A DNA stretch of 64,000 nucleotides from an uncultured Planctomycetales bacterium (GTDB taxonomy: Bacteria > Omnitrophota > Gorgyraeia > Zapsychrales > Fredricksoniimonadaceae), in NCBI GenBank assembly GCA_964583975.1, contig CAZOXU010000001.1:291552-355551 (forward strand), read 5' to 3'. This document shows, one piece after another, positions 1,731 to 54,068 of the stretch (position 1 is the stretch's first letter; the number at the start of each line of letters is the position of its first letter). The translations under genes and the position numbers were made by a program. Under the pieces are notes generated by a model. That model did not search any database and was not told where the DNA came from. It worked only from the letters and a program-made list of their open reading frames with translations.

Positions 1731-1797
1731 GTCATTCCCGAATGCTTTAATCGGGAATCTAGTGCCTGGATCCCCGATTAAAACTTTCGGGGATGAC
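1731..1797. repeat. Family I palindromic element, copy 1 (67 bp): GTCATTCCCGAATG...CTTTCGGGGATGAC
   Basis: Terminal inverted repeats GTCATYCCCGAA / TTCGGGGATGAC. Each arm has its own hairpin (ATTCCCGA..TCGGGAAT; ATCCCCGA..TCGGGGAT). Intergenic between comEA and the CDF gene. Confidence 0.85.
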
Positions 1798-2722: not shown

Positions 2723-4312
2723 TTAAAATAGTTTTAATTGTTGCTTTTCTGCTTCCTTACTCTTGGATAGTTTGCGGCGTAATTTGGAATTTTCGTAAGC
2801 TTTTAAATCTTCTTCGATATCAGCCAAGAATAACGATGGCGGATTAAAATAAGTTTGTCCGAAAATTTGCCGGCGGCCAGCACGTGTGAGAAATAAATGC
2901 TCCTTGGCTCTTGTCATTCCAACATAGAAAAGCCGACGTTCTTCCTGAGCGTCTCCTTTAAGTTCATGGATATCTAACGGCAGCAGTCTAGCTTCACATC
3001 CGATCATAAAAACAACCGGAAATTCCAAACCCTTAGCCGCATGTAAGGTTAAAAGAGAGACTCGCTCGACCTTGTAATCCAAAGTTTCTTCAAAACAATC
3101 TAATATTTGTTCATCGATTTGTTCCTGCGGTAGGGGCAGGGTTTCCCTGCCCTTATTAGGGTCGGGCGACCCGACCCCTACAGTACGTTTAGCTGAAACC
3201 GAATAAGGAATTCCTAAATGATCAAGCGCTTCGATAATCACATTTTTCTGGGCATTGAGGCGATAGAGAATGGCGATATCGCCAAAACTTCTCTGAGCTC
3301 CCCGATAAGATTCAACCCGATGTGAATCTTGTGAAAACATGCTTACCCCACCGATTAACTGTTCGATCTGGTGCGCCACATACTCTGCCTCGGCGCGGTC
3401 AGTGGCTGCTTCATGGATCACCAATCTACCTTCATCATAAATCTTAGCTACTGCCTCTGGGACCTTTTGTGTGTTTTCCTTAGCAATCACCTGCGAGCTT
3501 GCGGTTAACAAATTAACGGTCGAACGATAATTCTCTGTCAGATAAAGCTTAGCTGCACCAGCAAAATCTTCTTCAAATCGATTAAAGAATCTCACCTGAC
3601 TACCGCGGAATGAATAGATACTTTGATTAGGATCACCAATTACGGTTAATATCGCCCCCTGCTGGATCAAAACCTTCAACAAGGCCACTTGGATCAAATT
3701 GATATCCTGGTATTCATCGACAAAAATATAGCGATAGCGCTGCTGGACTTGCGCGAGCACCTCTTCATTTTCCAATAACATCAAGGCCTCACGTAGGATA
3801 TCATCAAAATCAATTAGGCCCTTGGCTCGTAACAAACGGTGATATTTCTGAAAATCTGCGCTGGCATCAATGACCAATTGGGTCGATTTCGCCCAAGATA
3901 TTTCATCGAGCGCCTTTTTACGTTCAAGGGGATTTTTATCAGGAAACATCTCAGACAAGAAACCTTGGATATCTTGAGGCAACGCGATCTGGAAGTCTTG
4001 AGGCAACGGCGTATGCTGGCTAAACTCACGCAGTAAGCTTAAAGCAAATCGATGAAATGTCCCCACTGTGATGTGCCGAAAAAAACGAGCATCCTTAGCC
4101 TCTAAACGAGTGCGCATTTCATGAGCGGCTTTATTAGTAAATGTAATGGCCAGAATCTTTTCGTCTGGTTTTAAATTGTTGAGGGTGCGAAGGATTCGGT
4201 AGGTGATCGTATGAGTTTTGCCAGTTCCTGGACCAGCTACAATCAGAAGATGTGAACCCTCATGAGCAACAGCCTGCCATTGTGCATCATTAAGATCTTC
4301 GGGTCTATTCAT
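2723..4312 (-). CDS. UvrD/PcrA-family superfamily-1 DNA helicase (short, 529 aa)
   Basis: Motifs: I GPGTGKT, Ia TFTNKAAHEM, II VDEYQD, III GDPNQSIYSFRG, IV LTENYRS, V LHAAKGLEFPVV, VI YVGMTRAKE. Carries an in-frame palindromic-element insertion at 3130-3181. Confidence 0.85.
   Translation of the reverse strand: MNRPEDLNDAQWQAVAHEGSHLLIVAGPGTGKTHTITYRILRTLNNLKPDEKILAITFTNKAAHEMRTRLEAKDARFFRHITVGTFHRFALSLLREFSQHTPLPQDFQIALPQDIQGFLSEMFPDKNPLERKKALDEISWAKSTQLVIDASADFQKYHRLLRAKGLIDFDDILREALMLLENEEVLAQVQQRYRYIFVDEYQDINLIQVALLKVLIQQGAILTVIGDPNQSIYSFRGSQVRFFNRFEEDFAGAAKLYLTENYRSTVNLLTASSQVIAKENTQKVPEAVAKIYDEGRLVIHEAATDRAEAEYVAHQIEQLIGGVSMFSQDSHRVESYRGAQRSFGDIAILYRLNAQKNVIIEALDHLGIPYSVSAKRTVGVGSPDPNKGRETLPLPQEQIDEQILDCFEETLDYKVERVSLLTLHAAKGLEFPVVFMIGCEARLLPLDIHELKGDAQEERRLFYVGMTRAKEHLFLTRAGRRQIFGQTYFNPPSLFLADIEEDLKAYENSKLRRKLSKSKEAEKQQLKLF
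3130..3181. repeat. Family II nested-palindrome element, divergent copy (52 bp), inserted in-frame in the helicase gene
   Basis: GTAGGGG-CAGGGtttCCCTGCC-cttatta-GGGTCGGgcgaCCGACCC-CTAC. Outer IR GTAGGGG/CCCCTAC plus two internal hairpins. Encodes VGVGSPDPNKGRETLPL. Confidence 0.8.
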
Positions 4313-5700: not shown

Positions 5701-8196
5701 TTAAATGACAATACTAACAAGCTTCTTGGGGACGACAATAATTTTCTTGATAGTAGCCCCTTCGAGATAGCGGGCCACATTGGCATCTGCCAGGCAGAGT
5801 TTTTTCAGATCTTCATCAGAGGTGCAAACCGATGTCGTAAACTGACCACGAACCTTACCATTGATTTGAACGGCATAGGTGACTTCATCTTGCACCAGGG
5901 CTCGCTCATCAAAGGCGGGCCAGGCGACCTTACTGACGGTCTGATCTTTTTTGCCCATCATCTGCCAAAGCTCTTCGCACAAATGCGGCGTAAATGGGGT
6001 TAACAATAAGACGAGGGTTTCAATGGCTTGATTCAACGTAACCGTTGATTCTTGCTTATACTTATCAACGGCATTTGCCAAGATCATAGCCTGACTAATG
6101 GCTGTATTAAATTTATAACCTTCTTCAAAAGCTTGGGTAATCTGTCGGATAGCTAGATGACGGGCACGCTCTAAGGTTTGATCTGCTCCCTGCTCGGTGG
6201 TTTCTTTCGCATAACGTTTCTCAACCATCAAGTAAACACGGTTTAAAAATCGCCAGGCCCCCTCTAAACCATCACTATTCCATTCGAGCTGATCTTCTGG
6301 CGGAGCAGCAAAAAGAATAAATAAACGTAAAGTATCTGCACCATATCTATTTAAAACTTCATCCGGATCAACTGTGTTGCCCCGAGATTTAGACATCACT
6401 TCTCCATCTTTAAGCACCATCCCCTGGGTTAAAAGACGGACAAACGGTTCATTTAAATCAGTTAGTCCTAAATCTTTGAAGAATTTAGTAAAAAAACGAG
6501 AGTACAACAAATGTAATATAGCATGCTCGATACCACCGATGTATTGATCGACCGCCATCCAATATTTGGCTTCATCCTTATTAAAGACTTCTTGGTTGTT
6601 ATCTGCAGAACAAAACCGTAAGAAATACCAGGAAGAATCAAAGAAGGTGGCCATGGTATCGGTTTCACGGCGGGCTGCTTTAGAACATTTAGGGCACTTC
6701 ACATTAACGAAATCTTCTACACGATTTAAAGGAGAGCCTCCCTGCCCCGTGATTTCCACATTCTTAGGTAATGCTACAGGCAATTGCGCATAAGGAACAG
6801 GAACCACACCGCAAGCCTCGCAATAAATCATGGGAATCGGCGTTCCCCAGTAACGCTGGCGGGAAATCAGCCAATCACGCAAGCGCCAATGAATGGTTGT
6901 TTTACCCATGCGTTCTTGAGCCATCCATTCAGCAATTTTCTTCTTAGCTTCTTCATTATTAAGACCATCAAATTGCTTCGAATTAACCAAAACACCCGCA
7001 TCTTCATAAGCCTTGGTCATATCTTTTAATTCAAAAACCTCTTTAGGGTTTTGAATAACAATTTTCATGGCAAGCTTATGGTTGGTAGCGAATTCAAAAT
7101 CGCGCTGGTCATGGGTGGGTACCGCCATAATGGCGCCAGTCCCATACTCCATCAATACATAGTCCCCAATATAAACCGGAATAGAATCACCATTAACAGG
7201 ATTGATGGCATAACGGCCTGTAAACACGCCTTCCTTACGCTGATCGCCTGACATACGAAGGCTTTTACTTTTATTGGCTGTCTTCTCAATAAAGGTCCCA
7301 ATTTCTTTTTCTTGAGGAGTGCCAGCGACAAGTTTTTTAACCAAAGGATGTTCTGGAGCCAGGACCACATAGGTAGCCCCAAAAATGGTGTCGGGACGGG
7401 TAGTGAAAACCGGAATAATTTCGTCCGTAGGGGCAGGCCCCTGTGCCTGCCCTTCTTGAGGGCGACCACGGGGGGTCGCCCCTACAATTTTAAAATAAAT
7501 CTCTACCCCAAAACTCTTACCAATCCAATTCTCCTGCATAGCTCGCACACGTGAAGGCCAATGCTCGAGCTGCTTTAAGTCTTCCAGTAAGGTTTCAGCG
7601 TAATGAGTAATCTTTAGATACCACTGATCTAAGTCTTTTTGTTCGACATTGTTTTTGCAGCGCCAGCAAGCGCCATCGATAACTTCTTCGTTGGCTAAGG
7701 TTGTCTGACAGCTAGGACACCAATTGACGGAAGAAGCTTTCTTATAGGCAAGCCCACGTTCATACATCTTTAAAAAGATCCACTGATTCCATCGGTAGTA
7801 GTCACTGTCGCAAGTGGCAATTTCACGGTCCCAGTCATAGGCAAAGCCCATTTTCTTGAGTTCTTCTCTCATCTGGTCGATACATTGGTAGGTCCACTGA
7901 CCTGGGTCGGTCTTATGTTTGATAGCCGCATTCTCAGCAGGCTGACCAAAGGCATCGTAGCCCATGGGGTGAAGCACATTAAACCCTTGCATCATTTTGT
8001 AACGGGCCATCACATCGCCGATGGTATAGTTACGCACATGGCCCATATGAATCTTGCCCGAAGGATAGGGAAACATTTCTAAGACATAATACTTCTTCTT
8101 AGAAGCATCCGCTTCGACTTTAAAAGTCTTGCGCTGTTCCCAGAAACGTTGCCATTTTGATTCAATGGATTTGATGTCGTTGGTGGTATAAGGCAT
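5701..8196 (-). CDS. leuS: Leucyl-tRNA synthetase
   Basis: HMGH (PSGKIHMGHVRNY) and KMSKS (VMSKSRGN) class-I motifs; TTRPDT editing-domain motif; bacterial LeuS length. Contains a 59-bp element insertion. Confidence 0.95.
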   Translation of the reverse strand: MPYTTNDIKSIESKWQRFWEQRKTFKVEADASKKKYYVLEMFPYPSGKIHMGHVRNYTIGDVMARYKMMQGFNVLHPMGYDAFGQPAENAAIKHKTDPGQWTYQCIDQMREELKKMGFAYDWDREIATCDSDYYRWNQWIFLKMYERGLAYKKASSVNWCPSCQTTLANEEVIDGACWRCKNNVEQKDLDQWYLKITHYAETLLEDLKQLEHWPSRVRAMQENWIGKSFGVEIYFKIVGATPRGRPQEGQAQGPAPTDEIIPVFTTRPDTIFGATYVVLAPEHPLVKKLVAGTPQEKEIGTFIEKTANKSKSLRMSGDQRKEGVFTGRYAINPVNGDSIPVYIGDYVLMEYGTGAIMAVPTHDQRDFEFATNHKLAMKIVIQNPKEVFELKDMTKAYEDAGVLVNSKQFDGLNNEEAKKKIAEWMAQERMGKTTIHWRLRDWLISRQRYWGTPIPMIYCEACGVVPVPYAQLPVALPKNVEITGQGGSPLNRVEDFVNVKCPKCSKAARRETDTMATFFDSSWYFLRFCSADNNQEVFNKDEAKYWMAVDQYIGGIEHAILHLLYSRFFTKFFKDLGLTDLNEPFVRLLTQGMVLKDGEVMSKSRGNTVDPDEVLNRYGADTLRLFILFAAPPEDQLEWNSDGLEGAWRFLNRVYLMVEKRYAKETTEQGADQTLERARHLAIRQITQAFEEGYKFNTAISQAMILANAVDKYKQESTVTLNQAIETLVLLLTPFTPHLCEELWQMMGKKDQTVSKVAWPAFDERALVQDEVTYAVQINGKVRGQFTTSVCTSDEDLKKLCLADANVARYLEGATIKKIIVVPKKLVSIVI
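7427..7485. repeat. Family II nested-palindrome element, copy A (59 bp), in-frame inside leuS
   Basis: GTAGGGG-CAGGcccctgtgCCTGCC-cttcttga-GGGCGACCacgggGGGTCGCCC-CTAC. Translated as RGRPQEGQAQGPAP immediately before the TTRPDT motif. Confidence 0.9.
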
Positions 8197-9156: not shown

Positions 9157-9944
9157 TGAGCGACTCTCCCCTGATCATTGGTGGCCGATCCTTTAAAAGC
9201 CGATTTTTCTTAGGCACTGGTAAATTCAAAAATAAACAGGACCTGAATGACTCTATTGTCGCTTCTGGGACAGAGATTGTTACCGTTGCGCTGCGGCGCA
9301 TTGATTTAGAACGTCATGAAGATAATATCCTTGAATACATCCCCCAAAATATCACCCTTTTAACCAATACCTCTGGCGCACGTACGGCCCAGGAAGCTGT
9401 CCGCATCGCACGCTTAGCCAAGGCTTCTGGCTGCGGCAATTGGGTCAAGATTGAAGTCATCAACGATAGCAAATACCTGCTGCCAGATAACGAACAGACA
9501 ATCAAAGCAACCGAAATCCTAGCTGCTGAAGGCTTTGTGGTTCTACCTTACATGTATCCCGATCTTTATACCGCCCGCGCTCTGGTGAAAGCTGGCGCAG
9601 CGACTGTCATGCCGCTCGGCTCTTTAATCGGCAGTAATCAAGGCCTAAAGACTCGTGAATTTATCAAAATCCTAATTGATGAAATTGATATTCCCATCGT
9701 AGTTGATGCCGGAATCGGCGCTCCTTCCCAAGCTGCGGAAGCAATGGAAATGGGCGCTGATGCGGTACTAACCAATACTGCTGTAGCCACGGCTGAGCAT
9801 CCAGCGTTATTAGCCAAGGCCTTTGCCCAAGCTGTCGAGTCAGGGCGTATGGCTTACTTAAGCCGATTGCCTGCTTCCAAAGATTTAGCCTCTGCTTCTT
9901 CTCCGCTGACTGGATTTTTGTATGATCCCCTTACAAAAAATTAA
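9156..9944 (+). CDS. thiG: Thiazole synthase ThiG
   Basis: TIM-barrel ThiG family ([19 protein letters not shown] motifs); start overlaps the thiS stop. Confidence 0.9.
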
Positions 9945-10938
9945 AGACTTACTTGAGGACCAACGCCCGCAAGCCCTAGAAGAAATTGCCCAGGAAGCTG
10001 CTCGGGTGACTCGACAATATTTTGGCCGTACTATTGGATTGTATGCCCCGCTTTATTTATCGAATTACTGCTCCAGTCATTGCACCTACTGCGGCTTTCA
10101 TAGTAATAACAAAATTACTCGCATAAAGCTTACTCCTGATCAATATCGCCAAGAAATGCAGGTCATTCACTCTCAAGGCATCCGTAATATTCTCATGCTT
10201 ACAGGCGAATCATATAAACACACGCCGGTTGAATATTTAAAAGAAGCAGCCCAGGCTGCCTCGGAGTATTTTCAAGGCATTGCACTTGAAGTCCATCCTA
10301 TGAAAACCAATGAATATCAAGAACTCTTTACTGCAGGGGTCGATGGCATTACGGTTTATCAGGAAACCTATGACCGCAGCCGCTATGCGCAGGTGCATCT
10401 TTCTGGCTACAAAAAAGATTATGATTTTAGACGAGCCACTCCCCAGCGAGCTGCTGAAGGTGGCATGCGCCAGATTGCCATGGGCGTTCTTTTAGGATTG
10501 AGTGATGCTGCTAGCGATCTTCTAGAACTTTATAACCACTTACGCGAGATGGAACAATCTTTTCCTGGCGTTGAGTACAGCGTTTCCTTTCCCAGGCTTC
10601 GCACTATTAAAGACAAAGAATTTGCCCACTGTGATGTCGATGATATCCAATTAACCAAGATTGTTGCCTTAACACGCATCCTTTTTCCTCGGGTAGGAAT
10701 CAATCTTTCCACCCGTGAAGATGCGCGCTTACGTGATCATTTGCTTGAAATCGGAATTACCCGTATGTCCGCAGGTTCAAATACATCGGTGGGTGGATAC
10801 TCTCTGCTGAACGAAGAAGAACAAGACCCTCAATTTGATATTAAAGATGAACGCTCGGTGGCTGATATTATTGCCCTACTTAAACGTAAGAATTTTGATC
10901 CTGTCTTTACGGACTGGCGACGAATTGAAAATAGGTAA
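9922..10938 (+). CDS. thiH: Radical-SAM 2-iminoacetate synthase ThiH (tyrosine lyase)
   Basis: [10 protein letters not shown] radical-SAM cluster motif; located in the thiS-thiG-thiH cluster. Confidence 0.8.
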
Positions 10939-10943
10939 AAAAT

Positions 10944-11048
10944 GTCATCCCCGAATGCTTTTATCGGGGATCCAGGCACAAGTGCCAGCCAGAGGCTGGT
11001 CAGCCCTGGACTGAAACTAGGTTCCCGATTAAAACGTTCGGGGATGAC
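10944..11048. repeat. Family I palindromic element, copy 2 (105 bp, extra GC-rich hairpin inserted in its centre)
   Basis: GTCATCCCCGAATGCTTTTATCGGGGAT...GTTCCCGATTAAAACGTTCGGGGATGAC, with the internal palindrome CCAGCCAGAGGCTGG. Intergenic between thiH and thiF. Confidence 0.85.
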
Positions 11049-11060
11049 ATAAGGTTATCC

Positions 11061-11669
11061 ATGAATATCTTTGAACAAGGCCTTTTAAAATACTTAAAAC
11101 CCGAACAGTTACATCAAATCCAATCTAAAAAGATCGGTATTGGTGGCGCGGGCGGATTGGGTTCGAATTGCGCCATGATGCTGGTACGAACAGGTTTTAA
11201 ACATTTTGAAATTATCGACAAAGATGTGATCGATCCTTCAAATTTAAACCGTCAGCAATACTTCATTGATGAAATTGGCTTATCCAAGGTTGAAATCACC
11301 AAGCAGAGGCTTTTAAAAATCAATCCGCAGGCTGAAATCATTATTCACCAAGCAGAGTGGAATGAACAAAATGCTGATCAATTCTTCAAAGGTTTTGATT
11401 TTATTGTAGAAGCCTTTGATGTGGCTGATTGGAAATACCGCTTCGCGCAGTACCACTCTCCTCGTTTTCCTGTAGTTGTTAGCGGTGTTGGAATGGCAGG
11501 CTTGACTCAAAAGCAACCCATGACGGTCAAAAAGATGGGCAATATCTACATCTGTGGAGATAGAAACACTGACTCGCACCAAGGCCATCCACCTATGGCT
11601 CCGCGCGTGAGTGCTTGTGCAGCCATGATGGCTGAGACCATTCTCGATTTAACTCTTAATATTAAATAG
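11061..11669 (+). CDS. thiF: ThiF/MoeB-family adenylyltransferase (short E1-like form)
   Basis: Gly-rich Rossmann motif GIGGAGGLGS; ~200 aa; last gene of the thi cluster. Confidence 0.7.
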   Translation: MNIFEQGLLKYLKPEQLHQIQSKKIGIGGAGGLGSNCAMMLVRTGFKHFEIIDKDVIDPSNLNRQQYFIDEIGLSKVEITKQRLLKINPQAEIIIHQAEWNEQNADQFFKGFDFIVEAFDVADWKYRFAQYHSPRFPVVVSGVGMAGLTQKQPMTVKKMGNIYICGDRNTDSHQGHPPMAPRVSACAAMMAETILDLTLNIK

Positions 11670-12508: not shown

Positions 12509-14476
12509 TTAAATGACTCGATCATTTCCCCCATCTATGGGGATTTGCGCGCCGGTGGTCTTGGCAAAGATGCGACCTGCCAAGCAACAAACTAAATCAG
12601 CCACATGATAAGAGGTGATTTCTGTCTTTAAAAGATTGCTCTTTTTGTAGTCTTCAATCGACAGACCATAAGCTTTGGCGCGCTTCTCTAAAACTTCCTT
12701 GGTCCAAATCGCTGTATCAAATACTTGATTAGGATGAACCACATTCACACGAATACCTTGGGGCGCTAATTCCAGAGCTGCCACTCTGGCCATTTGGGTT
12801 AGACCTGCCTTGGCGACCGAATACGCCCCTGCTCCAGGGCCTGGTGCTGGAACATTCTTAGAACCAATGATAATAAAGGTCGGATCAATACCCTGACTCA
12901 AATACGAAATAGCAGCCTTCAACAAACGCTGATGCGAAGTTAAATTAATCTTCACGCTGCGATCCCAAGTCTCAGGATTCATATTCTCAAGAGTTTCGCT
13001 GGCAGGAAAAATACCTGCATTACTCACCACAATATCCAAACCACCAAATCGTCTGACCGTGGCAGCCACAGCTTTCTGCAATTCAGCATCCTTAGTCACA
13101 TCACAAACCATTCCTACCACACTTACTCGGTTAAAGATCTTGGTAATTTCCTTATTGATATCAAGCGCCACTACGTGTGCTCCCTGAGCAGCTACTCTCT
13201 CAACACAGGCCTTGCCGATCCCGCTCGCCGCGCCAGTCACCAATGCAATCTTGCCTTGCAGCTCGAGCGGCTTAGGGTTCTTGGCAAGCTTGGCTTGCTC
13301 GAGCTCCCAGTATTCCATCTCAAAAATATCTTTCTCAGACAAAACCTTCCAGCCGCCCAAGCCCTCGGCAATCTGAATAGCAGCAATCGTATGCTCCACG
13401 ATATCGGAAATGATCTGGGCATCCTTGATCGAGCGACCAAAGCTTACTAACCCTTGTCCTGGCCACACAGCCCAGCGTGGGGCTAGATCAAGGCACTTCA
13501 ATTTGTTATTGGTATTGCAGTCAAAATAGAATTGATAATTCTTAGCGTAGGCTACGACATCCTTGGCAGGATCTTTGCCGATGACAACCGGAATAGGTTT
13601 GGTGCGAATCACGTGATCAGGGGTGAGTGTGCCTCGGGTGGCGATTTTTCCTACATCTGGAAGTTTTGAGAAGCCAACTGAACCAGCATCGTTTCTTAAA
13701 TCGGCAATAACTGCTGCCCCCAAAGCTACCGAGACAGCCTTTCGTATTTTACTTAAGGTTAATAACTCTTCCGAGCCAGCCTTGGCCGAAGCAATCTTAA
13801 TTCGCTTCTTAGCAATGAACTTCTCTGCCTCGATGACTAACCGGATATGATTTTCGTAGCTCGTCTTGGCATCATCACCAAAGGTGAATAAGCCATGGTT
13901 TAATAAAACAATGCCCTCGCACTTACTCCAATTCAGATCACGTGTCATTTCATAAACTTTTTTAGCTAACACAAAGCCAGGCATTACATAAGGAACAACT
14001 AAAACGCGATTGCCGTAAATTTCTTTAATAAGCGAGGCACCCTTAGGCGTATTGGTAATGGTTACAACAGCATCAGTGTGTGAGTGATCGACAAAGGTAT
14101 GTGGAATAATGGCGTGCAGGATGGCTTCGACCGACGGATTGGGTGCATGCGGATTAATCATGGCTGCTCTTTGCCCCACGACCATTTGCGCATCAGACAG
14201 CTCTGAAAAGGTAGCCATACGCTTTAAGGCGTCCAACCTGACAGCAGCAAACCCTTCCGCTTCAATCGTAGCTAAATCCCAGCCACTGGCTTTAATATAG
14301 AGAACTTCTTGGGTGTCTTGGAAGAAATCTTTGACGAGGGCTTTGACAGAAGTATTGCCACCCCCGTGCATAACCAGGGATGGCTCTCTTCCTAAAAGAC
14401 GAGACGTGTAAACACGTAGCTTTAGTGGATCATTTCCACAAACATCCGCTACCTGTTGGTCCCACAAACTTTTCAT
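12509..14476 (-). CDS. Bifunctional class II aldolase/adducin-domain plus short-chain dehydrogenase (rhamnulose-1-phosphate aldolase/SDR-like)
   Basis: N-terminal class II aldolase domain; C-terminal SDR with the TGAASGIGKA Rossmann motif and a YxxxK region. Confidence 0.75.
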   Translation of the reverse strand: MKSLWDQQVADVCGNDPLKLRVYTSRLLGREPSLVMHGGGNTSVKALVKDFFQDTQEVLYIKASGWDLATIEAEGFAAVRLDALKRMATFSELSDAQMVVGQRAAMINPHAPNPSVEAILHAIIPHTFVDHSHTDAVVTITNTPKGASLIKEIYGNRVLVVPYVMPGFVLAKKVYEMTRDLNWSKCEGIVLLNHGLFTFGDDAKTSYENHIRLVIEAEKFIAKKRIKIASAKAGSEELLTLSKIRKAVSVALGAAVIADLRNDAGSVGFSKLPDVGKIATRGTLTPDHVIRTKPIPVVIGKDPAKDVVAYAKNYQFYFDCNTNNKLKCLDLAPRWAVWPGQGLVSFGRSIKDAQIISDIVEHTIAAIQIAEGLGGWKVLSEKDIFEMEYWELEQAKLAKNPKPLELQGKIALVTGAASGIGKACVERVAAQGAHVVALDINKEITKIFNRVSVVGMVCDVTKDAELQKAVAATVRRFGGLDIVVSNAGIFPASETLENMNPETWDRSVKINLTSHQRLLKAAISYLSQGIDPTFIIIGSKNVPAPGPGAGAYSVAKAGLTQMARVAALELAPQGIRVNVVHPNQVFDTAIWTKEVLEKRAKAYGLSIEDYKKSNLLKTEITSYHVADLVCCLAGRIFAKTTGAQIPIDGGNDRVI

Positions 14477-14489
14477 AAATTAATCTCAT

Positions 14490-14557
14490 GTCATCCCCGA
14501 ATGTATTTATCGGGGATCTAGTACACTAGGTTCCCGATTAAAGCATTCGGAAACGAC
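14490..14557. repeat. Family I palindromic element, copy 3 (68 bp, right terminus degenerate)
   Basis: GTCATCCCCGAATGTATTTATCGGGGATCTAGTACACTAGGTTCCCGATTAAAGCATTCGGAAACGAC. Intergenic between the aldolase/SDR gene and cysK. Confidence 0.85.
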
Positions 14558-14568
14558 AGAAAGTTTTC

Positions 14569-15501
14569 TTAGCTTCGGTATTCTGCGAAAAGATCCGTCG
14601 ATAAATAGCGTTCGCCTGTTGAAGGGATGATGGCTACAATCAACTTACCCTTATTCTCTGGACGTCGACCAACCTGAATAGCAGCTTCAATCGCCGCACC
14701 AGAAGAAATACCGCAAAGAATCCCTTCTTCTTTAATAAGACGTTTGGCCATGGCAAAGGCTTGATCGTTATCGATTTGGATCACTTCATCAATGAGCTTA
14801 GTGTCTAAGATACTGGGTACAAATCCTGCTCCGATTCCTTGAATTTTATGAGGACCAGGTGCCCCGCCAGAAAGAACTGGAGAAGCTTTAGGTTCGATCG
14901 CAATCGCCTTAAATGAAGGTTTGCGAGCTTTAATCACTTGAGACACACCGGTTAATGTTCCGCCAGTACCAATACCAGAAATCAGAATATCAACCTTACC
15001 ATCGGTATCGCGCCAAATTTCTTCAGCGGTAGTCAGACGATGGATTTCAGGATTAGCTGGGTTATCAAACTGTTGAGGCATGTAATATTTAGCATCGCTG
15101 TCAGCCAACTCTTTGGCCTTCTTGATCGCTCCACGCATGCCTTCTGGGCCAGGGGTTAAGATCAACTCAGCACCCAAAGCTTTTAGAAGGGCTCGACGTT
15201 CGAGTGACATGGTTTCAGGCATAGTCAAAAGGAGTTTATAACCTTTCACAGCGCAAACAAACGCTAAGGCAATACCAGTATTTCCAGAAGTTGGCTCGAC
15301 AATGACAGTGTCTTTCTTGATTTTGCCTGCTTTTTCAGCAGCTTGAATCATGTTAAAACCGATGCGATCTTTGACTGAGCCTAGTGGGTTATAAAACTCC
15401 AACTTGCCAACGATGGTAGCCTGGCAGTCCTTGGTGACTTTATTGATTCTAACAAGCGGTGTATTACCTATTAATTCTGTGATGTCATTTGCAATTTTCA
15501 T
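14569..15501 (-). CDS. cysK: Cysteine synthase A (O-acetylserine sulfhydrylase)
   Basis: PLP-enzyme motifs [12 protein letters not shown] and GIGTGGT; 310 aa. Confidence 0.9.
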
Positions 15502-33818: not shown

Positions 33819-34463
33819 TTATTTTTGTAATTCGACCAATTCTACCACTAATTTTTCCATGGCATACTCGGGCATCAAACGGCTACGTTTGATGTTCAAG
33901 TCTGCCTCTTCGAGCGCCTTCAGTCCCCTTTGAAACTTCTGCGGACCTAACATTCTGCCCTCTTTCCCCCAATACCATACCAAGGCTCCCATCATCTGTA
34001 GTGGGTACATCCCTTCATCAAAGAATTCATTGAGTATTTTTAATGCATCCGTGGTTTTCTTAGCAGTCATTAACTTTGTCATATCAAAAATATTGGACTC
34101 TTGGGTGACTCCAAAATGAGAAGTCTGAGCCTGGGCTACAATATTTTTAAAATCAGCTTTGAGCGTGTCGATAGCCTCCAGGATCACATCACAAGATTCA
34201 TACTTTTCAGCTACAAAGGCCTCTAAGACCTTAATGGCTTCACTTTTTAATTGATGAGCATGGCGTATTAACAATAATCGTTTATTGGACATGACCGGCA
34301 AAGCCAACAAAGCTTTCTTTAAATTCGCACCGGATAAGTGCTGGGCATCGAGGGATTCAAAATCAAAATGATGGGATTCTGGCTTGACCAAAATGGAAGC
34401 CTTGATCTGGATAATTTTATTGTCTTTTGCGTAGGAGTCTTCGCCGAGGATTAGGTATAACAT
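33819..34463 (-). CDS. holA: DNA polymerase III delta subunit (HolA)-like, short form
   Basis: LYLILGEDSY N-terminus and clamp-loader delta-like helical C-terminus; conserved lptE-holA adjacency. Confidence 0.5.
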   Translation of the reverse strand: MLYLILGEDSYAKDNKIIQIKASILVKPESHHFDFESLDAQHLSGANLKKALLALPVMSNKRLLLIRHAHQLKSEAIKVLEAFVAEKYESCDVILEAIDTLKADFKNIVAQAQTSHFGVTQESNIFDMTKLMTAKKTTDALKILNEFFDEGMYPLQMMGALVWYWGKEGRMLGPQKFQRGLKALEEADLNIKRSRLMPEYAMEKLVVELVELQK

Positions 34464-34482
34464 AGATATAGTGTCATTCTGA

Positions 34483-34549
34483 GCGGAGCGAAGAATCTTA
34501 AAGTAGCGATGATCTTGAGATCCTTCGTCCCTTTAGGACTCAGGATGAC
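34483..34549. repeat. Family IV palindromic element (67 bp): GTCATTCTGAGCGGAGCGAAGAATC ... GATCCTTCGTCCCTTTAGGACTCAGGATGAC
   Basis: Inverted-repeat arms GTCATYCTGAG..CGAAGRATC. Same GTCATYC terminus and same 67-bp length as Family I copy 1. Sits between the lptE stop and the holA start. Confidence 0.8.
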
Positions 34550-34560
34550 GAAATTTTCAT

Positions 34561-35076
34561 TTACCAGTTTTCGATCGTACGTTCAACAACCCGACGAGCA
34601 AGATCCGTCAGGGTATCATTTAAAGCTTGGGCTTCGCTCTTGGCTTGAGGGCCGCTGGTAAAGAATGTTGATTCACCTACAAGAGAAGGTTCCTGCCAAA
34701 AAATTTGGCCGGTGGTGTTGTCCATCATAGTCAATGCAACAACAATACGTAAACGAAACTCTAAAACATTCTGTGATGTATCAGTTCTTAAATCATCTCG
34801 TTCATACGCTATTAATTCTCCTTTAAGAACTAAATCGCTCTTATCTGAATCACTTAAACGCAAATGCCCATCTAATTGGAATCGATCAATAATGGCATTT
34901 CGCACCTTGGTCTCTAAAAGCGGTACATATAATTTTTGTGAATTTTCGTCAATAAAAGCTACCTTGTTTTGAAAAGGCGTGACATGCAAAGTTTTATAAC
35001 TCGAAGATAATAAAGAACCGGTTGTGTACCCACAACCAGAGAAAAACACCAACATACAAATTAACAGGCGTCGCAT
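34561..35076 (-). CDS. lptE: LptE-like outer-membrane LPS-assembly lipoprotein
   Basis: Lipobox FFSGC; ~170 aa; located immediately upstream of holA as in the conserved leuS-lptE-holA arrangement. Confidence 0.5.
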   Translation of the reverse strand: MRRLLICMLVFFSGCGYTTGSLLSSSYKTLHVTPFQNKVAFIDENSQKLYVPLLETKVRNAIIDRFQLDGHLRLSDSDKSDLVLKGELIAYERDDLRTDTSQNVLEFRLRIVVALTMMDNTTGQIFWQEPSLVGESTFFTSGPQAKSEAQALNDTLTDLARRVVERTIENW

Positions 35077-39000: not shown

Positions 39001-40745
39001 TCTGATGTAATTTGATCTGTTGGCTCCTCATTAATAAACTGATCAACAACTACAGATGGGGTGAGCTTTACTACGTCACTTTGTAGCGATTCAACTTTTT
39101 CTTCTAACTTTTTCAGCAATTGATTCAAAACTGCCAATTCTCCAACCAATTTATTGCCTGCGCCTTGAACTCGTCGCAAAGCTCTGACATTTTCTCGATC
39201 CTTCAACATTAATCTTGTTGCACGAATAACTGTCAATATTTGCTGACGCTTTTCAGCATCCCCTATCGCAAGACGCTTCAAATCGATACCACGAAACACA
39301 TTAGAAACCGCAGCAATTCTTGCCAAAATTGATTGAAAAAGGAGAACGTCTTTACCATTTCCGCTGATCGCACCTTCCATACTTGTAATAACACTGTCGA
39401 ATTTTATATTTAACGTTCTGATCAAATCCTCTGAATCTTCTTCAGCCTTTGTCATCGCCGCATCAGCCTCAGACTTCTCTGCTAATACAGCTTCTACAGC
39501 ATCTAACTTTCCCGCCTCGGTAGTCAGGATCGGCGTTGCCATAGCAGAATCGGTTGTTGTGCGCATTACCTTTCCATATTCATTCTTTGTTCCACCTGAA
39601 AAATACTTCCTTGGCACGGGCTGATGGGTGAATCGGTCGGTGTCTTCTTTAATATAGTTAAATACACCCTTCTTATAAGCCTTAATGTATTGCTGATAAA
39701 TGGCTTCATTGTTCTTAGGATCTTGATTAATACCGTTAACCTTGGCTTTGTTAGCATAGATCTTGCTTAATAGAGATTCCTTCAAAGCTCGCTTGTACCA
39801 GGCTGCTAAAATCATGCCGCTATACACCTGACGAAGCATGACAAAGTTCTTGCCTTCATTGACTTCTTTTTCAAGGGCTGGAAGTACTATTTCACGGACG
39901 ATTTGGGAGCCGATTTGATTGGTTTCCGTAGGGGCAGGCCCCTGTGCCTGCCCTTCTTGAGGGCGACCACGGGGGGGCGCCCCTACAGCATTTTTATTCA
40001 TAGCCATGTAATCCTCTTCTAGCATCACCTTCAAATGATTCTTTAACACATACGCTGTATTACCAGATTCATACACCGTGGCATCATCTGGCACAATCCA
40101 TACCTTATTAAAGGTATTAACTGGAATCTCTGTGCTGCCAAATTGCTGCTGAGCTTGGGTATACACCTTATCCCAGAACTTCTTACCTAACTCATCTTCA
40201 GGGTATATTAAAGAAGCAGTGATTTGCTTTAATAGGTAGTCTTGAGCTAATAAATCCCGGCCCATCTCAGTCTTACCAAAGTCTTCTTCTACGATACGGT
40301 TCTTTTCATAGGGTGATAGGTTGACCCATTGATTCTCATCAGGCACGGCTAAAGAAGCCATAAAGTACTTAATTAAATTCTTATAAGCGATTTGTTTATC
40401 TTGATCAGATAGACTTTCATCACCTTTGTAGATGATGAAGTCGAATTTAAGAGGATTTTCAGGATGAATAACTAAACCTTTAAGATGTGCAGGGGTGAAT
40501 TCAGGGCTTAGAGCAACTCTGACTCCTGGACTTGGCATCCATGGCATCGAACCAGCAGCCACTTGAGAATAAGCAGGCCGTTGAATGGAAGTACTAAGAA
40601 AAGTCACTAAAATGGTGATAGAAATAAACTTACGAATGGTCATAAAAACCCTTCTTCCTGAGGTATAAATAGTAAATTTGGGGTCAAAAATTCTACACTT
40701 CTTGAAATATGCGGCAAGTATGCCATGGGAAAAGCGCTTTGTCAA
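36090..40745 (-). CDS. Giant secreted modular protein (probable start 40642, ~1517 aa) with coiled-coil repeats, recurrent D-[SA]-A-M-x motif, and a C-terminal acyl-carrier-protein-like domain
   Basis: Long single ORF. Signal peptide follows the internal Met (MTIRKFISITILVTFLSTSIQRPAYS), which is preceded by AGGAAG. Carries a palindromic-element insertion at 39928-39986. The ACP-like segment is FSVDSQDVIVLMIELEDSFNIRIPNDKTASLRTVGDIVQYV. Confidence 0.7.
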   Translation of the reverse strand: MTKRFSHGILAAYFKKCRIFDPKFTIYTSGRRVFMTIRKFISITILVTFLSTSIQRPAYSQVAAGSMPWMPSPGVRVALSPEFTPAHLKGLVIHPENPLKFDFIIYKGDESLSDQDKQIAYKNLIKYFMASLAVPDENQWVNLSPYEKNRIVEEDFGKTEMGRDLLAQDYLLKQITASLIYPEDELGKKFWDKVYTQAQQQFGSTEIPVNTFNKVWIVPDDATVYESGNTAYVLKNHLKVMLEEDYMAMNKNAVGAPPRGRPQEGQAQGPAPTETNQIGSQIVREIVLPALEKEVNEGKNFVMLRQVYSGMILAAWYKRALKESLLSKIYANKAKVNGINQDPKNNEAIYQQYIKAYKKGVFNYIKEDTDRFTHQPVPRKYFSGGTKNEYGKVMRTTTDSAMATPILTTEAGKLDAVEAVLAEKSEADAAMTKAEEDSEDLIRTLNIKFDSVITSMEGAISGNGKDVLLFQSILARIAAVSNVFRGIDLKRLAIGDAEKRQQILTVIRATRLMLKDRENVRALRRVQGAGNKLVGELAVLNQLLKKLEEKVESLQSDVVKLTPSVVVDQFINEEPTDQITSDELQAAADYLEDGIADRTLTELKYVKALGAIKDAMKTKKDAAMAAKPRLKKMSPLQIFDLAVSKNYKTALQTIYLSSLWAAHHAIGVAIVDSFLLSSRQRKRIAKQITNDKKIMQRIWDEILRRDSAMAAQKSSQAIADAQKKVEELEGQFDGLNRELAIARAEDKFAKMTDLEAALRKTEKSLLRAQEELNLLQGFDAAMDVVTLRNGSQASKEVVDSTMEKLRGVLNQTLGALTLADLEDLARSPDFKIYDGPKATLQKAGLINTDSSIDPDIRNIVLSAIEAKGIDTKLVSPIKEGQGVVTTAKADAAMANRSDLQISPSVRKGQLEAQQRELQAQIDSLQKELELDRTKADSLRPQIAALQIQLERIKVNILALLPEIDNGRDDSDAAMSGELPPQARLEAGINQSNLGAAKLLTASKQKGELEQRQRSIQAQIDSFQRELDAEYAKNTAAAGVNVVANPSIISRLRVQIDVLKRELENVKAEINTAWAEISNATGSGDAAMRGELPQTSLDNLLKQQGKINDRIAQERKLMNAAAVQNNESDRLQHAMEIETLQRELDSLDTAIHQAQAEIGRPDQDDHQARFVDEAMIAITKIKIPLWREAFDQLVNAPDFNGLQEQKMAFTGKKTGVLQATSGEVDVFYNYQNANYWMIGFNKIHTSVSWSSGKLKISRDGKADLEISQNNDPMVAFERYLSEGVENTTIVLSDDAFQRITAAELLTQEGALSIVAEKLNIEVISKTDYRRKLQNKESELSAQRVKVNVDYVSALGRGYGAQQGGAYSPTVLGNQLQKLDQEIKAIKDQINALYDSAMTTKSEGVRQKVHEAIKKVVPSLDHIEFKDTDDLQKDFSVDSQDVIVLMIELEDSFNIRIPNDKTASLRTVGDIVQYVTDKISDSAMATKGGIDFNAANLNLQIKRDGAGVPLPISQQNLENIHIDGLVPVIMEIRPAITLPMFSQLQKNTQLAKG
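39928..39986. repeat. Family II nested-palindrome element, copy B (59 bp), in-frame inside the giant ORF
   Basis: Nearly identical to copy A (differs by about 2 nt, in the second hairpin). Encodes PPRGRPQEGQAQGPAPT. Confidence 0.9.
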
Positions 40746-41998: not shown

Positions 41999-42063
41999 AA
42001 AATTAGGGACAACCCCCTATTTTATCCTTTCACTTAAGAAAATAGGGAGTTGTCCCTAATTTT
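41999..42063. repeat. Family III palindromic element, copy 1 (65 bp): AAATTAGGGACAACCCCCTATTTT ... AAAATAGGGAGTTGTCCCTAATTT
   Basis: Hairpin with an ~20-bp stem; stem differs from copies 2/3 by paired changes (ACCC/GAGT vs GCGC). Encodes the last 8 codons plus stop of miaA. Lies 2 nt upstream of the hflX start. Confidence 0.85.
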
Positions 42064-44944: not shown

Positions 44945-45616
44945 TTATTGGGCACGGCTTAATTCAAACACAAAACCCTTAACGCGGCCGGTCACAGGAT
45001 CTTTGACCTTTGAGGTCATTCGGGCTATCTCTTCTGTCGAACACTCGTCTTCAAATTTCACCACCAGCCGGCGGCTAGGCTTAGAGCGGTTATGGACCTT
45101 GGCTACAGGTTCCTGGCCCAAAAAACAACCCTTGGTATACGAGGTAAATTTAAACTCATCGATATTTAGAATAAATTCATCCGCCTGAAAATCTCCGCCG
45201 GAGACGGATCCGCCTTTGGCGGAAACGCCCATCAAAGGGATTTTTCTTTCAAGTCGAAAGAGGGTAAATTCCTCATCAGAAACATTACTTTCTGTTATTT
45301 CATTTGAGAAAACCACGCGGCCTGAATCGATATTCATATACGACCGATACTCTGCCGATGGGATAAGGCTTGTATGATTAAGCTTAGCATAGCGCTCAAG
45401 ATGTTTTAACAACGCCTCGTTAGCCACTTGAGGTACGCTTAATAAAAAGTGATCTTCCGATCGCTTTTCTTGGGCGCAGGTGGCAATGACCCGGCCATGT
45501 TGATTTAAAAAGGCATTAAAAGGCTGATCTAGTGAATTAGACGTCAGGCCGTTTAAGAATTTCTCAGCATTGCCGCTAACTTCTAAGACAATATCATCAA
45601 GTTTGTATAGTCGCAT
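44945..45616 (-). CDS. YgfZ/GcvT-like folate-binding protein
   Basis: Conserved KGCFLGQE motif of the YgfZ family. Confidence 0.5.
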   Translation of the reverse strand: MRLYKLDDIVLEVSGNAEKFLNGLTSNSLDQPFNAFLNQHGRVIATCAQEKRSEDHFLLSVPQVANEALLKHLERYAKLNHTSLIPSAEYRSYMNIDSGRVVFSNEITESNVSDEEFTLFRLERKIPLMGVSAKGGSVSGGDFQADEFILNIDEFKFTSYTKGCFLGQEPVAKVHNRSKPSRRLVVKFEDECSTEEIARMTSKVKDPVTGRVKGFVFELSRAQ

Positions 45617-45618
45617 AT

Positions 45619-45687
45619 AAATTAGGGACAGCGCCCTATTTCACCCTATTTTTTCTTGCTTGCTAAATAGGGCGCTGTCCCTAATTT
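45619..45687. repeat. Family III palindromic element, copy 2 (69 bp): AAATTAGGGACAGCGCCCTATTT caccctattttttcttgcttgct AAATAGGGCGCTGTCCCTAATTT
   Basis: Perfect 23-bp inverted arms. Provides the cca C-terminus KLGTAPYLASKKK plus stop. Abuts the start of the downstream gene. Confidence 0.9.
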
Positions 45688-47052
45688 AGCTGCCAACACC
45701 AACGCTTCTTGTTTCGTAGCTATCTTCCCCAATGCTTGAGCCTCTTGAACTTCAGATAGAATCTTCGTAAATAGCGGCGATGGTTTTAATTTAAGCTTTT
45801 TGATTAAATCATGCCCCGTCAACAAACGTACCAGAGGTTTCTGATTTTGACTGTCGATAAAACGCTCGATCACCTGCCAGCAGGTTTTACGATGATGCTC
45901 ACTCTTGGCCTTCTTGGTCAAAGGCCCACGTGTGGCTCGCTGATCAGCGAGCGCTAAAAGTAAAACACTTAAAGCTTCCTGCTTTGTATCACGCAAAAAA
46001 CGAAAAACCATTCGCTCGGAAGGTTGTTTAAAATTTGACATATATCCTGGGCGCAAATGCCAGGCCACCATATCTTCTAAGAAATATCGCTCCTTGACCG
46101 CCAACTTTAAATGTTTAGCCACAATGCGGGTGATATCAGCCCCCACCTTTTCATGACCATGAAAGGTCATGCGGTCTTTTTCTTTTTTCTTGGTGTCAGG
46201 TTTACCGATATCATGCAACAGACAAGCAAACTTCAACAACGCATATCGCTTGTGATTGGCTGCAATTTCTTCTTGGAGATAATTTTGAATAAATGGATCT
46301 TCGATTTCGAGAGCTAACAGTTCAAACTGACGTACCACCTCGAGCGAATGCTTCCAAACATCCAGATGATGATATCCGCCTTGATGAACGCCTTCCATCA
46401 CACCGAGTTGGGGCATGATCTTTTGCAGTAATCCTGCTTTGTGCATCAAAACAATGGTCTCAACCGTTCTGCTAGAAGCTAAAACCTTAAACCATTCTTC
46501 TCGAACCCGCTCGACCGAAACCTTACTTATGCGACTAATATCTTTTTGAATCTGCTTAAAAGTCTTAGCTTCGATCTTAAATCCCAACTGAGCCGATAAA
46601 CTAAAGGCTCGCATTAGTCTCAGCGGATCATCAGCAAAAGCCCGGGACGCGACCATCCTGATAGTCTTTGATTTCAGATCTTTAGTGGCCCCACGATAAT
46701 CCAATATCTTCGTATCATTAATACTCTGGCATAAGGTATTGATCGTAAAATCACGTAGGGCTACATCCTTCTGCAGTGATTCAGCACGAAAATCAGAAAA
46801 ATCATAGGTCCACAGTTGCCCTTCTTCTTTTTTGACAACCCGTCCGCACGGATGTTCTTCATCTAAAAGAACAAAAGCCCCTTTGATCTTTTTAGCAAAG
46901 GCCCGAGCCAGTTCGATTGCATTCTTCGAGACCGTAAAATCAAAATCAAAACCTTCGCGGTTTAAATATTGGTCGCGTAAACGGCCGCCAACCAAATAAA
47001 CCGAAACTCGGCCTCGAGCTGCTAATGTTTGGATAGTAGATAAATACTTCAT
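45646..47052 (-). CDS. cca: CCA-adding tRNA nucleotidyltransferase / poly(A) polymerase family with HD domain
   Basis: Pol-beta nucleotidyltransferase N-terminus YLVGGRLRDQYL..DFDF and HD motif LLHDIGKP. Confidence 0.75.
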   Translation of the reverse strand: MKYLSTIQTLAARGRVSVYLVGGRLRDQYLNREGFDFDFTVSKNAIELARAFAKKIKGAFVLLDEEHPCGRVVKKEEGQLWTYDFSDFRAESLQKDVALRDFTINTLCQSINDTKILDYRGATKDLKSKTIRMVASRAFADDPLRLMRAFSLSAQLGFKIEAKTFKQIQKDISRISKVSVERVREEWFKVLASSRTVETIVLMHKAGLLQKIMPQLGVMEGVHQGGYHHLDVWKHSLEVVRQFELLALEIEDPFIQNYLQEEIAANHKRYALLKFACLLHDIGKPDTKKKEKDRMTFHGHEKVGADITRIVAKHLKLAVKERYFLEDMVAWHLRPGYMSNFKQPSERMVFRFLRDTKQEALSVLLLALADQRATRGPLTKKAKSEHHRKTCWQVIERFIDSQNQKPLVRLLTGHDLIKKLKLKPSPLFTKILSEVQEAQALGKIATKQEALVLAAKLGTAPYLASKKK

Positions 47053-47459: not shown

Positions 47460-47948
47460 CTATTTGCCTTTCTTCTTTTTATTCTTTCCTAAAATCGTCT
47501 GCAATTCCGACATAAACTGGTTCACATCACGAAACTGGCGATACACAGAAGCAAATCTTACATAAGCCACTTCATCAACAGTTGAAAGCTGATTCATCAC
47601 CATCTCACCAATATCTTTAGCCTCAACTTCATGATCGTATTTTTTACGAACGACCCGCTCGATCTCATCCACCATTGATTCAATTTGATCAACACTCACA
47701 GGCCTTTTTTCACAAGCCTTGATGATCCCATTTGTAATCCGTGTTCGATCAAAAGTCTGTCTTCGGCCGTCACGCTTAACTACCATCAAAGGCACCTGCT
47801 CAATATATTCGTAGGTGGTAAAACGTTCTTCACATTTAGGACATTTGCGTCGGCGACGAATGGATGTCCCATCGCTGTTCATGCGAGAATCAACAACATT
47901 CGTATCTTTATAGTGACAAGCAGGACAGCGCATATATTTACATGTCAT
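47460..47948 (-). CDS. nrdR: Transcriptional repressor NrdR (conserved N-terminus MRCPACH begins at 47933)
   Basis: Zinc ribbon CPACH..CPKC followed by an ATP-cone. The first five codons (MTCKY) are contributed by the terminus of a Family I element. Confidence 0.85.
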   Translation of the reverse strand: MTCKYMRCPACHYKDTNVVDSRMNSDGTSIRRRRKCPKCEERFTTYEYIEQVPLMVVKRDGRRQTFDRTRITNGIIKACEKRPVSVDQIESMVDEIERVVRKKYDHEVEAKDIGEMVMNQLSTVDEVAYVRFASVYRQFRDVNQFMSELQTILGKNKKKKGK

Positions 47949-48066
47949 CCCCGAAATCTTTTACCTGCCTGCCGGCAGGCAGGTCGGGGATCTAGAGCTT
48001 GCAAGAAAATCTCTGATTTCCGCCAAAGGCGGACCAGCCTCAGGCTGGAAAACATTCGGGCTAGAC
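47944..48066. repeat. Family I palindromic element, copy 4 (123 bp, divergent, with internal CCTGCCTGCCGGCAGGCAGG palindrome)
   Basis: GTCATCCCCGAAATCTTTTACC...TCGGGGATCTAGAGC...GGAAAACATTCGGGCTAGAC. Intergenic between nrdR and glyA. Confidence 0.8.
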
Positions 48067-48073
48067 AGATTAA

Positions 48074-49312: not shown

Positions 49313-49329
49313 AATCTCCTCTTAAGATT

Positions 49330-49397
49330 GTCATCCCCGAATGCTTTTATCGGGGATCTAGTGCACTAGTTGCCCGACTAAAACATTCGGGCATGAC
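49330..49397. repeat. Family I palindromic element, copy 5 (68 bp)
   Basis: GTCATCCCCGAATGCTTTTATCGGGGATCTAGTGCACTAGTTGCCCGACTAAAACATTCGGGCATGAC. Intergenic between glyA and rpiB. Confidence 0.85.
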
Positions 49398-49402
49398 AGG
49401 TG

Positions 49403-50919: not shown

Positions 50920-50923
50920 AATT

Positions 50924-54045: not shown

Positions 54046-54068
54046 AGTTAGATTCCTTCACAAAAATC

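Follow-up and report, generated by a model that had tools for sequence, protein, structure and literature searches.

Hairpin doublets in operon junctions of an Omnitrophota genome as probable gene-less relatives of small GIY-YIG gene units

The window analysed here is a stretch of 64,000 nt (64 kb) on contig CAZOXU010000001.1 of an uncultured Omnitrophota bacterium, and it carries five hairpin doublets, at 1731-1797, 10944-11048, 14490-14557, 47944-48066 and 49330-49397. We propose, with a probability of roughly 0.65, that these five elements are gene-less derivatives, akin to miniature transposable elements with inverted repeats (MITEs), of a unit in which a ~95-aa GIY-YIG gene of the Ssn type is bracketed by two inward-facing hairpin arms. 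The five copies, reported in a preliminary description of the window, exceed what chance would give: an nhmmer profile and an unfiltered covariance model (both strands) each recover exactly these five loci with E values of 4.5e-20 to 0.003, the best further match lying at E = 0.18, and the terminal 14-mer GTCATCCCCGAATG occurs 8 times at ≤2 mismatches versus 0.34 expected, with 0 of 100 shuffles reaching 8.

The system to which we relate these elements became known only in 2025. Chenal et al. 2025 (Nat Commun, PMC11893778) reported the Neisseria Transformation Sequence (NTS), CGTCATTCCCGCGMAVGCGGGAATCYRG, which contains the dRS3 repeat, together with a degenerate Ssn-related motif (SRM). For binding by SsnA, a 94-aa single-domain GIY-YIG protein, the NTS hairpin has to be single-stranded DNA, and the cut falls a few nucleotides 5' of the NTS GTC; in N. 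meningitidis, the GTC before the palindrome is important for cutting and the C after it for binding (PMC11893778). Binding and cutting of single strands have been published for Neisseria and Wolbachia homologues, ssn genes typically have the motif on both sides, and the authors proposed, without testing it, that NTS-ssnA-NTS is a mobile unit resembling an insertion sequence (IS) (PMC11893778). The kind of element is thus known since 2025; new here are arms with a long loop, fixed gene-less doublets and an Omnitrophota host.

Hairpin arms around GIY-YIG genes

Each element consists of two arms in inverted orientation, an arm being Y-GTCAT, an 8-bp palindrome with a 9-nt loop within it, and then C-YRG. 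In the window the palindromes are ATCCCCGA...TCGGGGAT or ATTCCCGA...TCGGGAAT (general form ATYCCCGA...TCGGGRAT), the loop is ATGCTTTTA or similar and the tail is C-TAG or C-CAG. The element termini extend to Y-GTCAT...ATGAC-R; every intact window arm starts with GTCAT or GTCGT, and of 94 doublets, 66 have T and 25 have C just before GTCAT. The tails (CTAGT or CCAGG in 7/7 window arms) pair mutually, as do the GTC/GAC ends, so that the whole element can be drawn as a four-helix junction. An arm finder that asks for GTC followed by an 8-bp palindrome (≤1 mismatch, 3-13 nt of loop) located seven arms in the 64 kb, every one of them within the five elements.

The same arms surround GIY-YIG genes elsewhere. 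Over 8000 proteins of ~95 aa whose sole domain is PF01541 were retrieved by a GIY-YIG consensus query, and in the three genomic contexts examined next (loci L123, L120 and L121) a GIY-YIG gene stands between inward-facing arms (3/3). At L123 the gene lies exactly at the position that the variable centre would take in a doublet, and at L121 the arm-gene-arm unit is inserted between leuC and leuD. We then scanned metagenomes with an alignment of 25 GIY-YIG proteins of ~95 aa and obtained 80 loci, among which an inward arm occurs ≤200 bp upstream of 61 of 76 GIY-YIG genes, downstream of 59 of 74 and on both sides of 43 of 64, usually 1-20 nt from the coding sequence; about 80% of the 95-aa single-domain GIY-YIG genes in metagenomes are tightly bracketed by inward arms. 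Arms with the 9-nt loop of the window type accompany GIY-YIG genes at L120, L125, L129, L131, L132 and L159, and the L125 upstream arm, GTCATGCCCGAATGCTTTTATCGGGCAT, has the very loop found in window copies 2 and 5. At L131 a gene-bearing unit is followed ~40 nt on by a gene-less doublet of the same two arms, as would be expected if the first were an autonomous element and the second a miniature version derived from it. GIY-YIG units of this kind occur in Omnitrophota as well: one lies between purQ and purM at L219, on the same contig of a metagenome-assembled genome as a GlyA 79% identical to that of the window. As a separate observation, some ten half-arm repeats of 19 nt each (GGAACATGAGCGGGAATGACAT) follow one another in tandem at 3371-3590 of L219, downstream of this unit.

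The grammar of the window arms is that of NTS and SRM (Y-GTCAT, ATYCCCG...CGGGRAT, a C directly after, then YRG) and, at the level of the family, both systems show hundreds of dispersed copies and arms on both sides of a gene for a single-domain GIY-YIG protein of ~95 aa. The doublet's right arm fits the NTS consensus from GTCAT on (GTCATTCCCGCGAAAGCGGGAATCCAG) in most other phyla. Outside the window's phylum it also reads exactly ATTCCC-N8-GGGAAT, e.g. ATTCCCGCTTTCGCGGGAAT, as in dRS3, and the family shares paired inverted ATTCCC...GGGAAT hairpins around a variable centre with the NIMEs, the Neisseria units with inverted dRS3 flanks (ATTCCC-N8-GGGAAT). The window arms depart from these models in several respects: they have a 9-nt loop (AATGnnTTnAT) and thus ATYCCC-N13-GGGRAT instead of N8, one arm has CCCC/GGGG instead of TCCC/GGGA, and the copies are fixed gene-less inverted doublets in an Omnitrophota host. 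Unlike in NIMEs, the centre of the doublet measures just 4-40 nt, versus the 50-150-bp RS unit, and the range extends far beyond Neisseria.

In the mechanism that we favour, a putative Ssn-type nuclease encoded elsewhere in this Omnitrophota genome would act in trans and recognise the arms in single-stranded form. It would read the left arm on the top strand but the right arm on the bottom one, and would therefore cut opposite strands, in each case just beyond the end of the element. Such nuclease activity could underlie the spread of the elements, and possibly modulate recombination of incoming single-stranded DNA as in Neisseria. Copies would sit in operon junctions because insertions are tolerated there, and any RNA hairpin effect on polycistronic mRNAs would be a by-product independent of orientation.

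Several results weigh against this interpretation. There is no GIY-YIG gene in the 64-kb window (best E = 0.22), nor in the at least 118 loci derived from a pattern scan for the doublet (see below). The 95-aa proteins, putative members of cd10448, match PF01541 only in Pfam, NCBIfam has no specific model for them, and the NCBIfam and PDB matches are weak and generic. The published SRM pattern, HGTCWYN(0-2)YYVSBRHN(0-5)WNVSBRGN(0-2)RNCYNB, has 0 matches in the window, and four arms match only if up to 7 instead of 5 loop nucleotides are allowed; the misses are due to the 9-nt loop and the CCCC/GGGG arm, and the pattern itself is operational, taken from 29 genomes and not a biochemical criterion. 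Since an arm variant outside this pattern is widespread, current motif censuses probably undercount. Folded as single-stranded DNA, the window copies are most stable as one long hairpin (-15 to -30 kcal/mol, z -4.5 to -7.7) rather than as two arms. Finally, Ssn is not known to transpose DNA, and SsnA cuts beside its motif and not at empty sites, with the two arms cleavable on opposite strands.

A bolder proposal goes further than derivation from a gene-bearing unit. The ~0.4-kb arm-ssn-arm units, with a 95-aa GIY-YIG gene as their sole gene, might themselves be autonomous transposons, the smallest known, moving as single strands by their hairpin ends without target duplication; the window doublets would be their MITEs, distributed across at least 12 phyla, preferring operon junctions and settling even in frame in essential genes such as leuS. 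We advance this tentatively and consider it to have somewhat less than an even chance.

Conserved structure of the doublets

Covariation supports two independent arm hairpins over one long hairpin. In an alignment of 150 hits, 96.1% of cells are paired under the two-arm structure compared with 88.3% in shuffles (reached in 0/500), while the corresponding values for one long hairpin are 87.9% and 87.8% (214/500). The two-arm structure contains 18 pairs changed on both sides, and no inter-arm pair contains any. The arm helices are 99.5% and 98.7% paired with double-sided changes at 7/8 pairs of each, whereas the long hairpin leaves 49-85 of 149 rows unpaired wherever positions vary. Because the alignment had been fitted to the model and includes both strands of many elements, these figures are biased in its favour; the difference between the two structures over identical columns is independent of this bias. 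When doublets were located via their left arm only, the right arm formed its own 8-bp stem (≤1 mismatch) in 84 of 96 doublets versus 0.5 expected, and perfect inter-arm pairing was found in only 4 of the 96. On covariation, a single long hairpin is therefore rejected as the conserved structure, even though the window copies reach their lowest energy in that fold.

Mobility, host range and rival explanations

The rpiB-glyA-nrdR junctions, which hold copies 4 and 5 in the window, are empty in two Omnitrophota relatives, L204 and L205, whose GlyA is 85-86% identical to that of the window. In L204, rpiB, glyA and nrdR overlap by 4 nt, and in L205 the junction gaps consist of an unrelated 65-nt AT-rich spacer and of 9 nt. 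Conversely, a 60-nt doublet lies in frame within leuS of the relative L074 (LSSPNGLIGDLKKIPASAGMT), where the window LeuRS lacks it, and a 63-nt in-frame copy is present in another gene at L018. Nested copies and tandem arrays occur in the family. No target-site duplication was seen in 86 of 94 doublets, the remainder showing only 1-3 nt, which is at chance level, and next to the ends only the Y before GTCAT and the R after ATGAC are conserved. Gene-less doublets made from the arms of the unit, empty orthologous sites, in-frame insertions and lack of target duplication give sequence-level support to the mobile-unit idea.

Two observations in leuS and at the empty sites concern the target. At L074 3022-3081, compared with window ~7000-7060, the right ATGAC of the doublet supplies conserved Met-Thr codons, and the window has a native ATGAC there. 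At the empty L204 sites, stop and start codons overlap as ATGA. Taken together, the two observations hint, from sequence comparison, at a target preference for ATGA(C).

The context of 98 doublets was assigned by crude open reading frame (ORF) calling: 40 lie in co-directional, 19 in convergent and 8 in divergent gaps, 21 inside ORFs and 10 at contig edges. In the 40 co-directional gaps, the orientation relative to the flanking genes is the same in 22 and opposite in 18 cases, and in the window 2:3, i.e. orientation relative to transcription is random. These counts bear on the idea, part of the preliminary description, that the doublets are intercistronic RNA hairpins. In its general form, this explanation takes them as cis-acting RNA structures selected in polycistronic mRNAs, serving as stabilisers, processing sites or attenuators as proposed for REP and Correia elements, so that the operon position reflects function. 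It would fit the strong structure noted above and the position of six window copies (the five and a sister-type doublet at 34473-34549), all in short co-directional gaps, starting 5-28 nt past a stop codon and ending before the start of the next gene. Palindromic arms would indeed give an RNA hairpin from either strand, but a role in operons accounts poorly for the convergent, divergent and in-gene copies, among them the in-frame one in leuS, or for close relatives in which the junctions are empty and the genes overlap. SsnA, moreover, does not bind the RNA form of NTS (PMC11893778). Against Rfam 15 the whole window has 0 matches at the gathering score, and 47850-49500 has 0 even when E ≤ 1 is accepted; no copy has a U-tract. 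Because orientation is random (22:18 and 2:3) and no Rfam family matches, a strand-specific RNA function is unlikely; a hairpin effect on mRNAs that is independent of orientation may exist. Selected RNA structure as the reason for these elements is in our view improbable.

The family is a dispersed one and is not confined to the window. By an exact scan for TCCCCGAATGNNTTNATCGGGGA, with one genome per species, the doublet was found in at least 118 loci, which represent no fewer than 12 phyla. Among the hosts are Omnitrophota, Schekmanbacteria, Nitrospirota, Desulfuromonadales/Geobacter, Ignavibacteria, KSB1, Calditrichaeota, Elusimicrobia/Endomicrobia, Planctomycetota, Caldisericota, Melainabacteria, Coxiellaceae, Vibrio, Iodobacter, Janthinobacterium and others. 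Among the matches listed, one architecture is nearly universal: GTCA/TCCCCGA-loop-TCGGGGA/TCCAG-variable-CTGGA/TTCCCG-loop-CGGGAA/TGAC. The covariance model gives 241 hits, both strands counted, in 89 sources. The window GlyA is 85-86% identical to proteins of Candidatus Omnitrophica / Omnitrophota, and tblastx gives a concordant placement of the window.

Other origins were tried and rejected. IMG/VR holds only 2 exact motif matches and 11 GIY-YIG relatives, and given these low counts the family is not mainly viral. An origin from Coxiella or Legionella is contradicted by GlyA and other window proteins, which are closest to Omnitrophota. The elements are neither the Coxiella QMITE1/2, which measure 150-400 bp and have GTAG and direct repeats, nor the Geobacter MITE Chunjie of 178-235 bp. 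As a side observation, in Vibrio breoganii (L026 2678-3642) an 80-bp doublet is repeated six times in tandem, once every ~177 bp, and its right arm shows the compensatory changes TCTCCGA...TCGGAGA.

With dispersal established, the question is what moves the elements. Classical MITEs would be internally deleted IS copies whose termini, TGTCAT...ATGACA, are recognised by a DDE transposase (Correia-like or IS-derived). The inverted termini starting TG...CA, the size of 60-120 bp and the dispersed, mostly intergenic copies would suit such an origin, yet 86 of 94 doublets lack a target-site duplication. Nor did we find any recurrent gene family, transposase-like or other, adjoining the copies in the at least 118 loci. 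The only gene found bracketed by such termini encodes the 95-aa GIY-YIG protein, and internal arms kept as self-pairing hairpins are not required of inverted repeats bound as duplex. We regard this origin as very unlikely. Kinship with Correia elements, also drawn in the preliminary description, does not hold either. Correia elements duplicate a TA target and have an integration host factor (IHF) site and RNase III-sensitive stems (see also PMC10969869). Both are short inverted-repeat elements inside operons that can be co-transcribed; the window family differs in its terminal inverted-repeat sequence and shows no TA duplication, IHF site or RNase III-type stems.

A second candidate for the mobilising enzyme is the REP-associated tyrosine transposase (RAYT), an IS200/IS605-like Y1 enzyme that would mobilise the doublets as BIME/REPIN-type REP pairs. 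The resemblance is considerable: the family shares with REP/BIME/REPIN the non-autonomous inverted hairpin doublet, the lack of target-site duplication, a small cognate gene flanked by the units and a frequent location in operon gaps; the logic of single-stranded hairpins fits, and a separate family of GTAG-headed GC-rich doublets is present in the window. The head is, however, GTCAT in every arm and not GTAG or GTGG, and the arms bracket genes for a GIY-YIG nuclease instead of an HUH/Y1 transposase. In a phmmer search of limited sensitivity, seeded with the single sequence of an IS200 TnpA, no Y1 transposase turned up in the window and there was one unrelated match in the at least 118 loci. 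The cognate RAYT or IS200/IS605 gene that the preliminary description suggested looking for was thus not found by this search in the window or recurrently near copies; the gene that accompanies full-length relatives is the 95-aa GIY-YIG gene. Mobilisation by a Y1 enzyme has, on these grounds, very low odds. Of the earlier comparison with REP/BIME elements, the dispersed, non-autonomous palindromic family, presumably mobilised in trans, survives, and the kinship with REP and RAYT, lacking the GTAG head, does not.

The arms could also be mainly recognition sites kept by the host, used for Ssn trimming of incoming single-stranded DNA or, as for dRS3, as attachment sites of IS110-type or phage recombinases. 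The published function of NTS/SsnA in N. meningitidis and the targeting of dRS3 by a phage recombinase provide precedents (PMC11893778). In the window one copy, copy 1, adjoins a comEA-like gene, and at L220 and L225 an arm-flanked GIY-YIG gene adjoins a large serine recombinase, beside a MiaB-like gene. Presence and absence nevertheless differ at orthologous sites, and copies are inserted in frame in essential genes, nested or arrayed in tandem; spread as selfish DNA is therefore favoured. The recognition-site explanation is compatible with derivation from GIY-YIG units, and as the principal reason for the arms we give it a small chance.

A parallel for the in-frame copies is provided by the Rickettsia palindromic elements, reportedly described by Ogata et al. 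2000 as selfish DNA in frame in protein genes. Family doublets likewise lie in frame within essential genes (the 60-nt copy in L074 leuS, and also the 63-nt copy at L018), whereas the five window copies are all intergenic; the likeness drawn here is one of insertion habit.

Individual copies and other repeats in the window

The flanking gene identities given earlier proved right: Pfam supports comEA-like HHH, CDF, ThiG/ThiH/ThiF, the aldolase-SDR fusion, CysK, NrdR, GlyA and RpiB as neighbours. The view that the copies are not simple terminators also stands, since none of the five elements is listed among the terminator-like sites of the window. Copy 1 (1731-1797, minus strand) is a 67-bp doublet scoring 80.5 bits on the minus strand and 78.1 on the plus strand with the covariance model, and it is flipped relative to copies 2-5, which read on the plus strand. 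It lies between a CDF transporter gene (1826-2719, minus) and the comEA-like HHH gene (1367-1702, minus), with a CCCC-type arm at 1770-1797 in minus-strand reading and a TCCC-type arm at 1731-1758 in plus-strand reading.

Copy 2 (10944-11048; 105 bp, 71.8 bits, E = 5.7e-17 by the covariance model) is located in the thiG-thiH-thiF operon, between thiH (9922-10938) and thiF (11061-11669). Both genes are on the plus strand, which corrects the statement that all copies lie between minus-strand genes. It starts 5 nt past the thiH stop codon and ends 12 nt short of the thiF ATG; arm A is at 10944-10971, arm B, inverted, at 11021-11048, and the enlarged centre contains a GC mini-hairpin, CCAGCCAGAGGCTGG, at 10985-10999. 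Copy 3 (14490-14557; 68 bp, 83.5 bits by the same model) occupies the gap between cysK (14569-15501, minus) and the aldolase-SDR fusion gene (12509-14476, minus), its arm A at 14490-14517 and its partly decayed arm B (GTCGTTTCCGA...) at 14530-14557.

The two remaining copies flank glyA (48074-49312, minus). Copy 4 (47944-48066), between glyA and nrdR (47460 to ~47931, minus), is a degenerate 123-bp doublet with 20 bits and E = 0.003 in the covariance model. The loop of its arm A (47944-47991) is split by a 20-nt palindrome, CCTGCCTGCCGGCAGGCAGG, at 47964-47983; the 5' half of its right arm is decayed, GC mini-hairpins stand at 48019-48033 and 48034-48048, and the right end is ...AAAACATTCGGGCTAGAC. 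Copy 5 (49330-49397; 68 bp, 81.9 bits by the covariance model) lies between rpiB (49403-49855, minus) and glyA, with arm A at 49330-49357 (CCCCGA/TCGGGG) and arm B at 49370-49397 (GCCCGA/TCGGGC), a compensatory change inside the latter arm. A Logan contig of 1669 bp from a public run (L119, SRR12487046) matches window 49329-50997 at 100% identity, its end coinciding with copy 5; repeats such as this one therefore break short-read assemblies. For annotation, the elements account for contig breaks at operon junctions and for recurrent spurious peptides such as SSPNAFIGDP, VIPAKAGIQ and DSRFRGND.

The sixth, sister-type doublet (34473-34549, strand not assigned) fills the gap between a holA-like gene (33819-34463, minus) and lptE (34561-35076, minus). 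Its arms, GTCATTCTGAGCGGAGCGAAGAATCT and, inverted, GTCATCCTGAGTCCTAAAGGGACGAAGGATCT, each have a tandem G.A mismatch in the stem, and it is matched by the family model at E = 0.18. The sister arm type is also present in six other loci (L015, L035, L063, L108, L161 and L202).

Besides these doublets, the window contains GC mini-hairpins of 15-20 nt, at 10985-10999, 47964-47983, 48019-48033, 48034-48048, 45209-45223 and 52273-52291, examples being CCAGCC-NNN-GGCTGG and TCCGCC-AAA-GGCGGA, the latter together with its reverse complement at 45209. The nested GC palindromes earlier described for copies 2 and 4 are thus present and recur elsewhere in the window, except that in copy 4 the 20-nt palindrome interrupts the left arm's loop instead of lying at the centre. 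Similar GC hairpins are nested in arm loops of other phyla (L005, L027 and L079).

The GTAG-headed GC-rich doublets (GTAGGGGC-hairpin ... hairpin-GCCCCTAC) lie at ~3130-3181, 7424-7486 and 39925-39987, within the long ORFs of a UvrD-like helicase gene, leuS and a gene for a 1551-aa protein. In leuS the copy adds 17 aa in frame (GATPRGRPQEGQAQGPAPT region), which are absent from the L074 orthologue. Judged by sequence, these look like REPIN-type elements in coding genes of a 42% GC genome. A third, intergenic family, the inverted pair AAATTAGGGACAGCGCCCTATTT ... AAATAGGGCGCTGTCCCTAATTT, is found in operon gaps at 42000-42062, 45618-45690 and 50923-50999, and 2/3 of its copies are listed as terminator-like sites.

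Finally, a low-GC segment at 53326-54884, encoding a BsaWI-like restriction endonuclease and an N6/N4 DNA methylase, separates purQ (55015-55812) from purM (52292-53299) in the window. The two genes overlap in L204, and the GIY-YIG unit occupies the same junction in L219, which makes the purQ/purM junction an apparent hot spot of selfish DNA.

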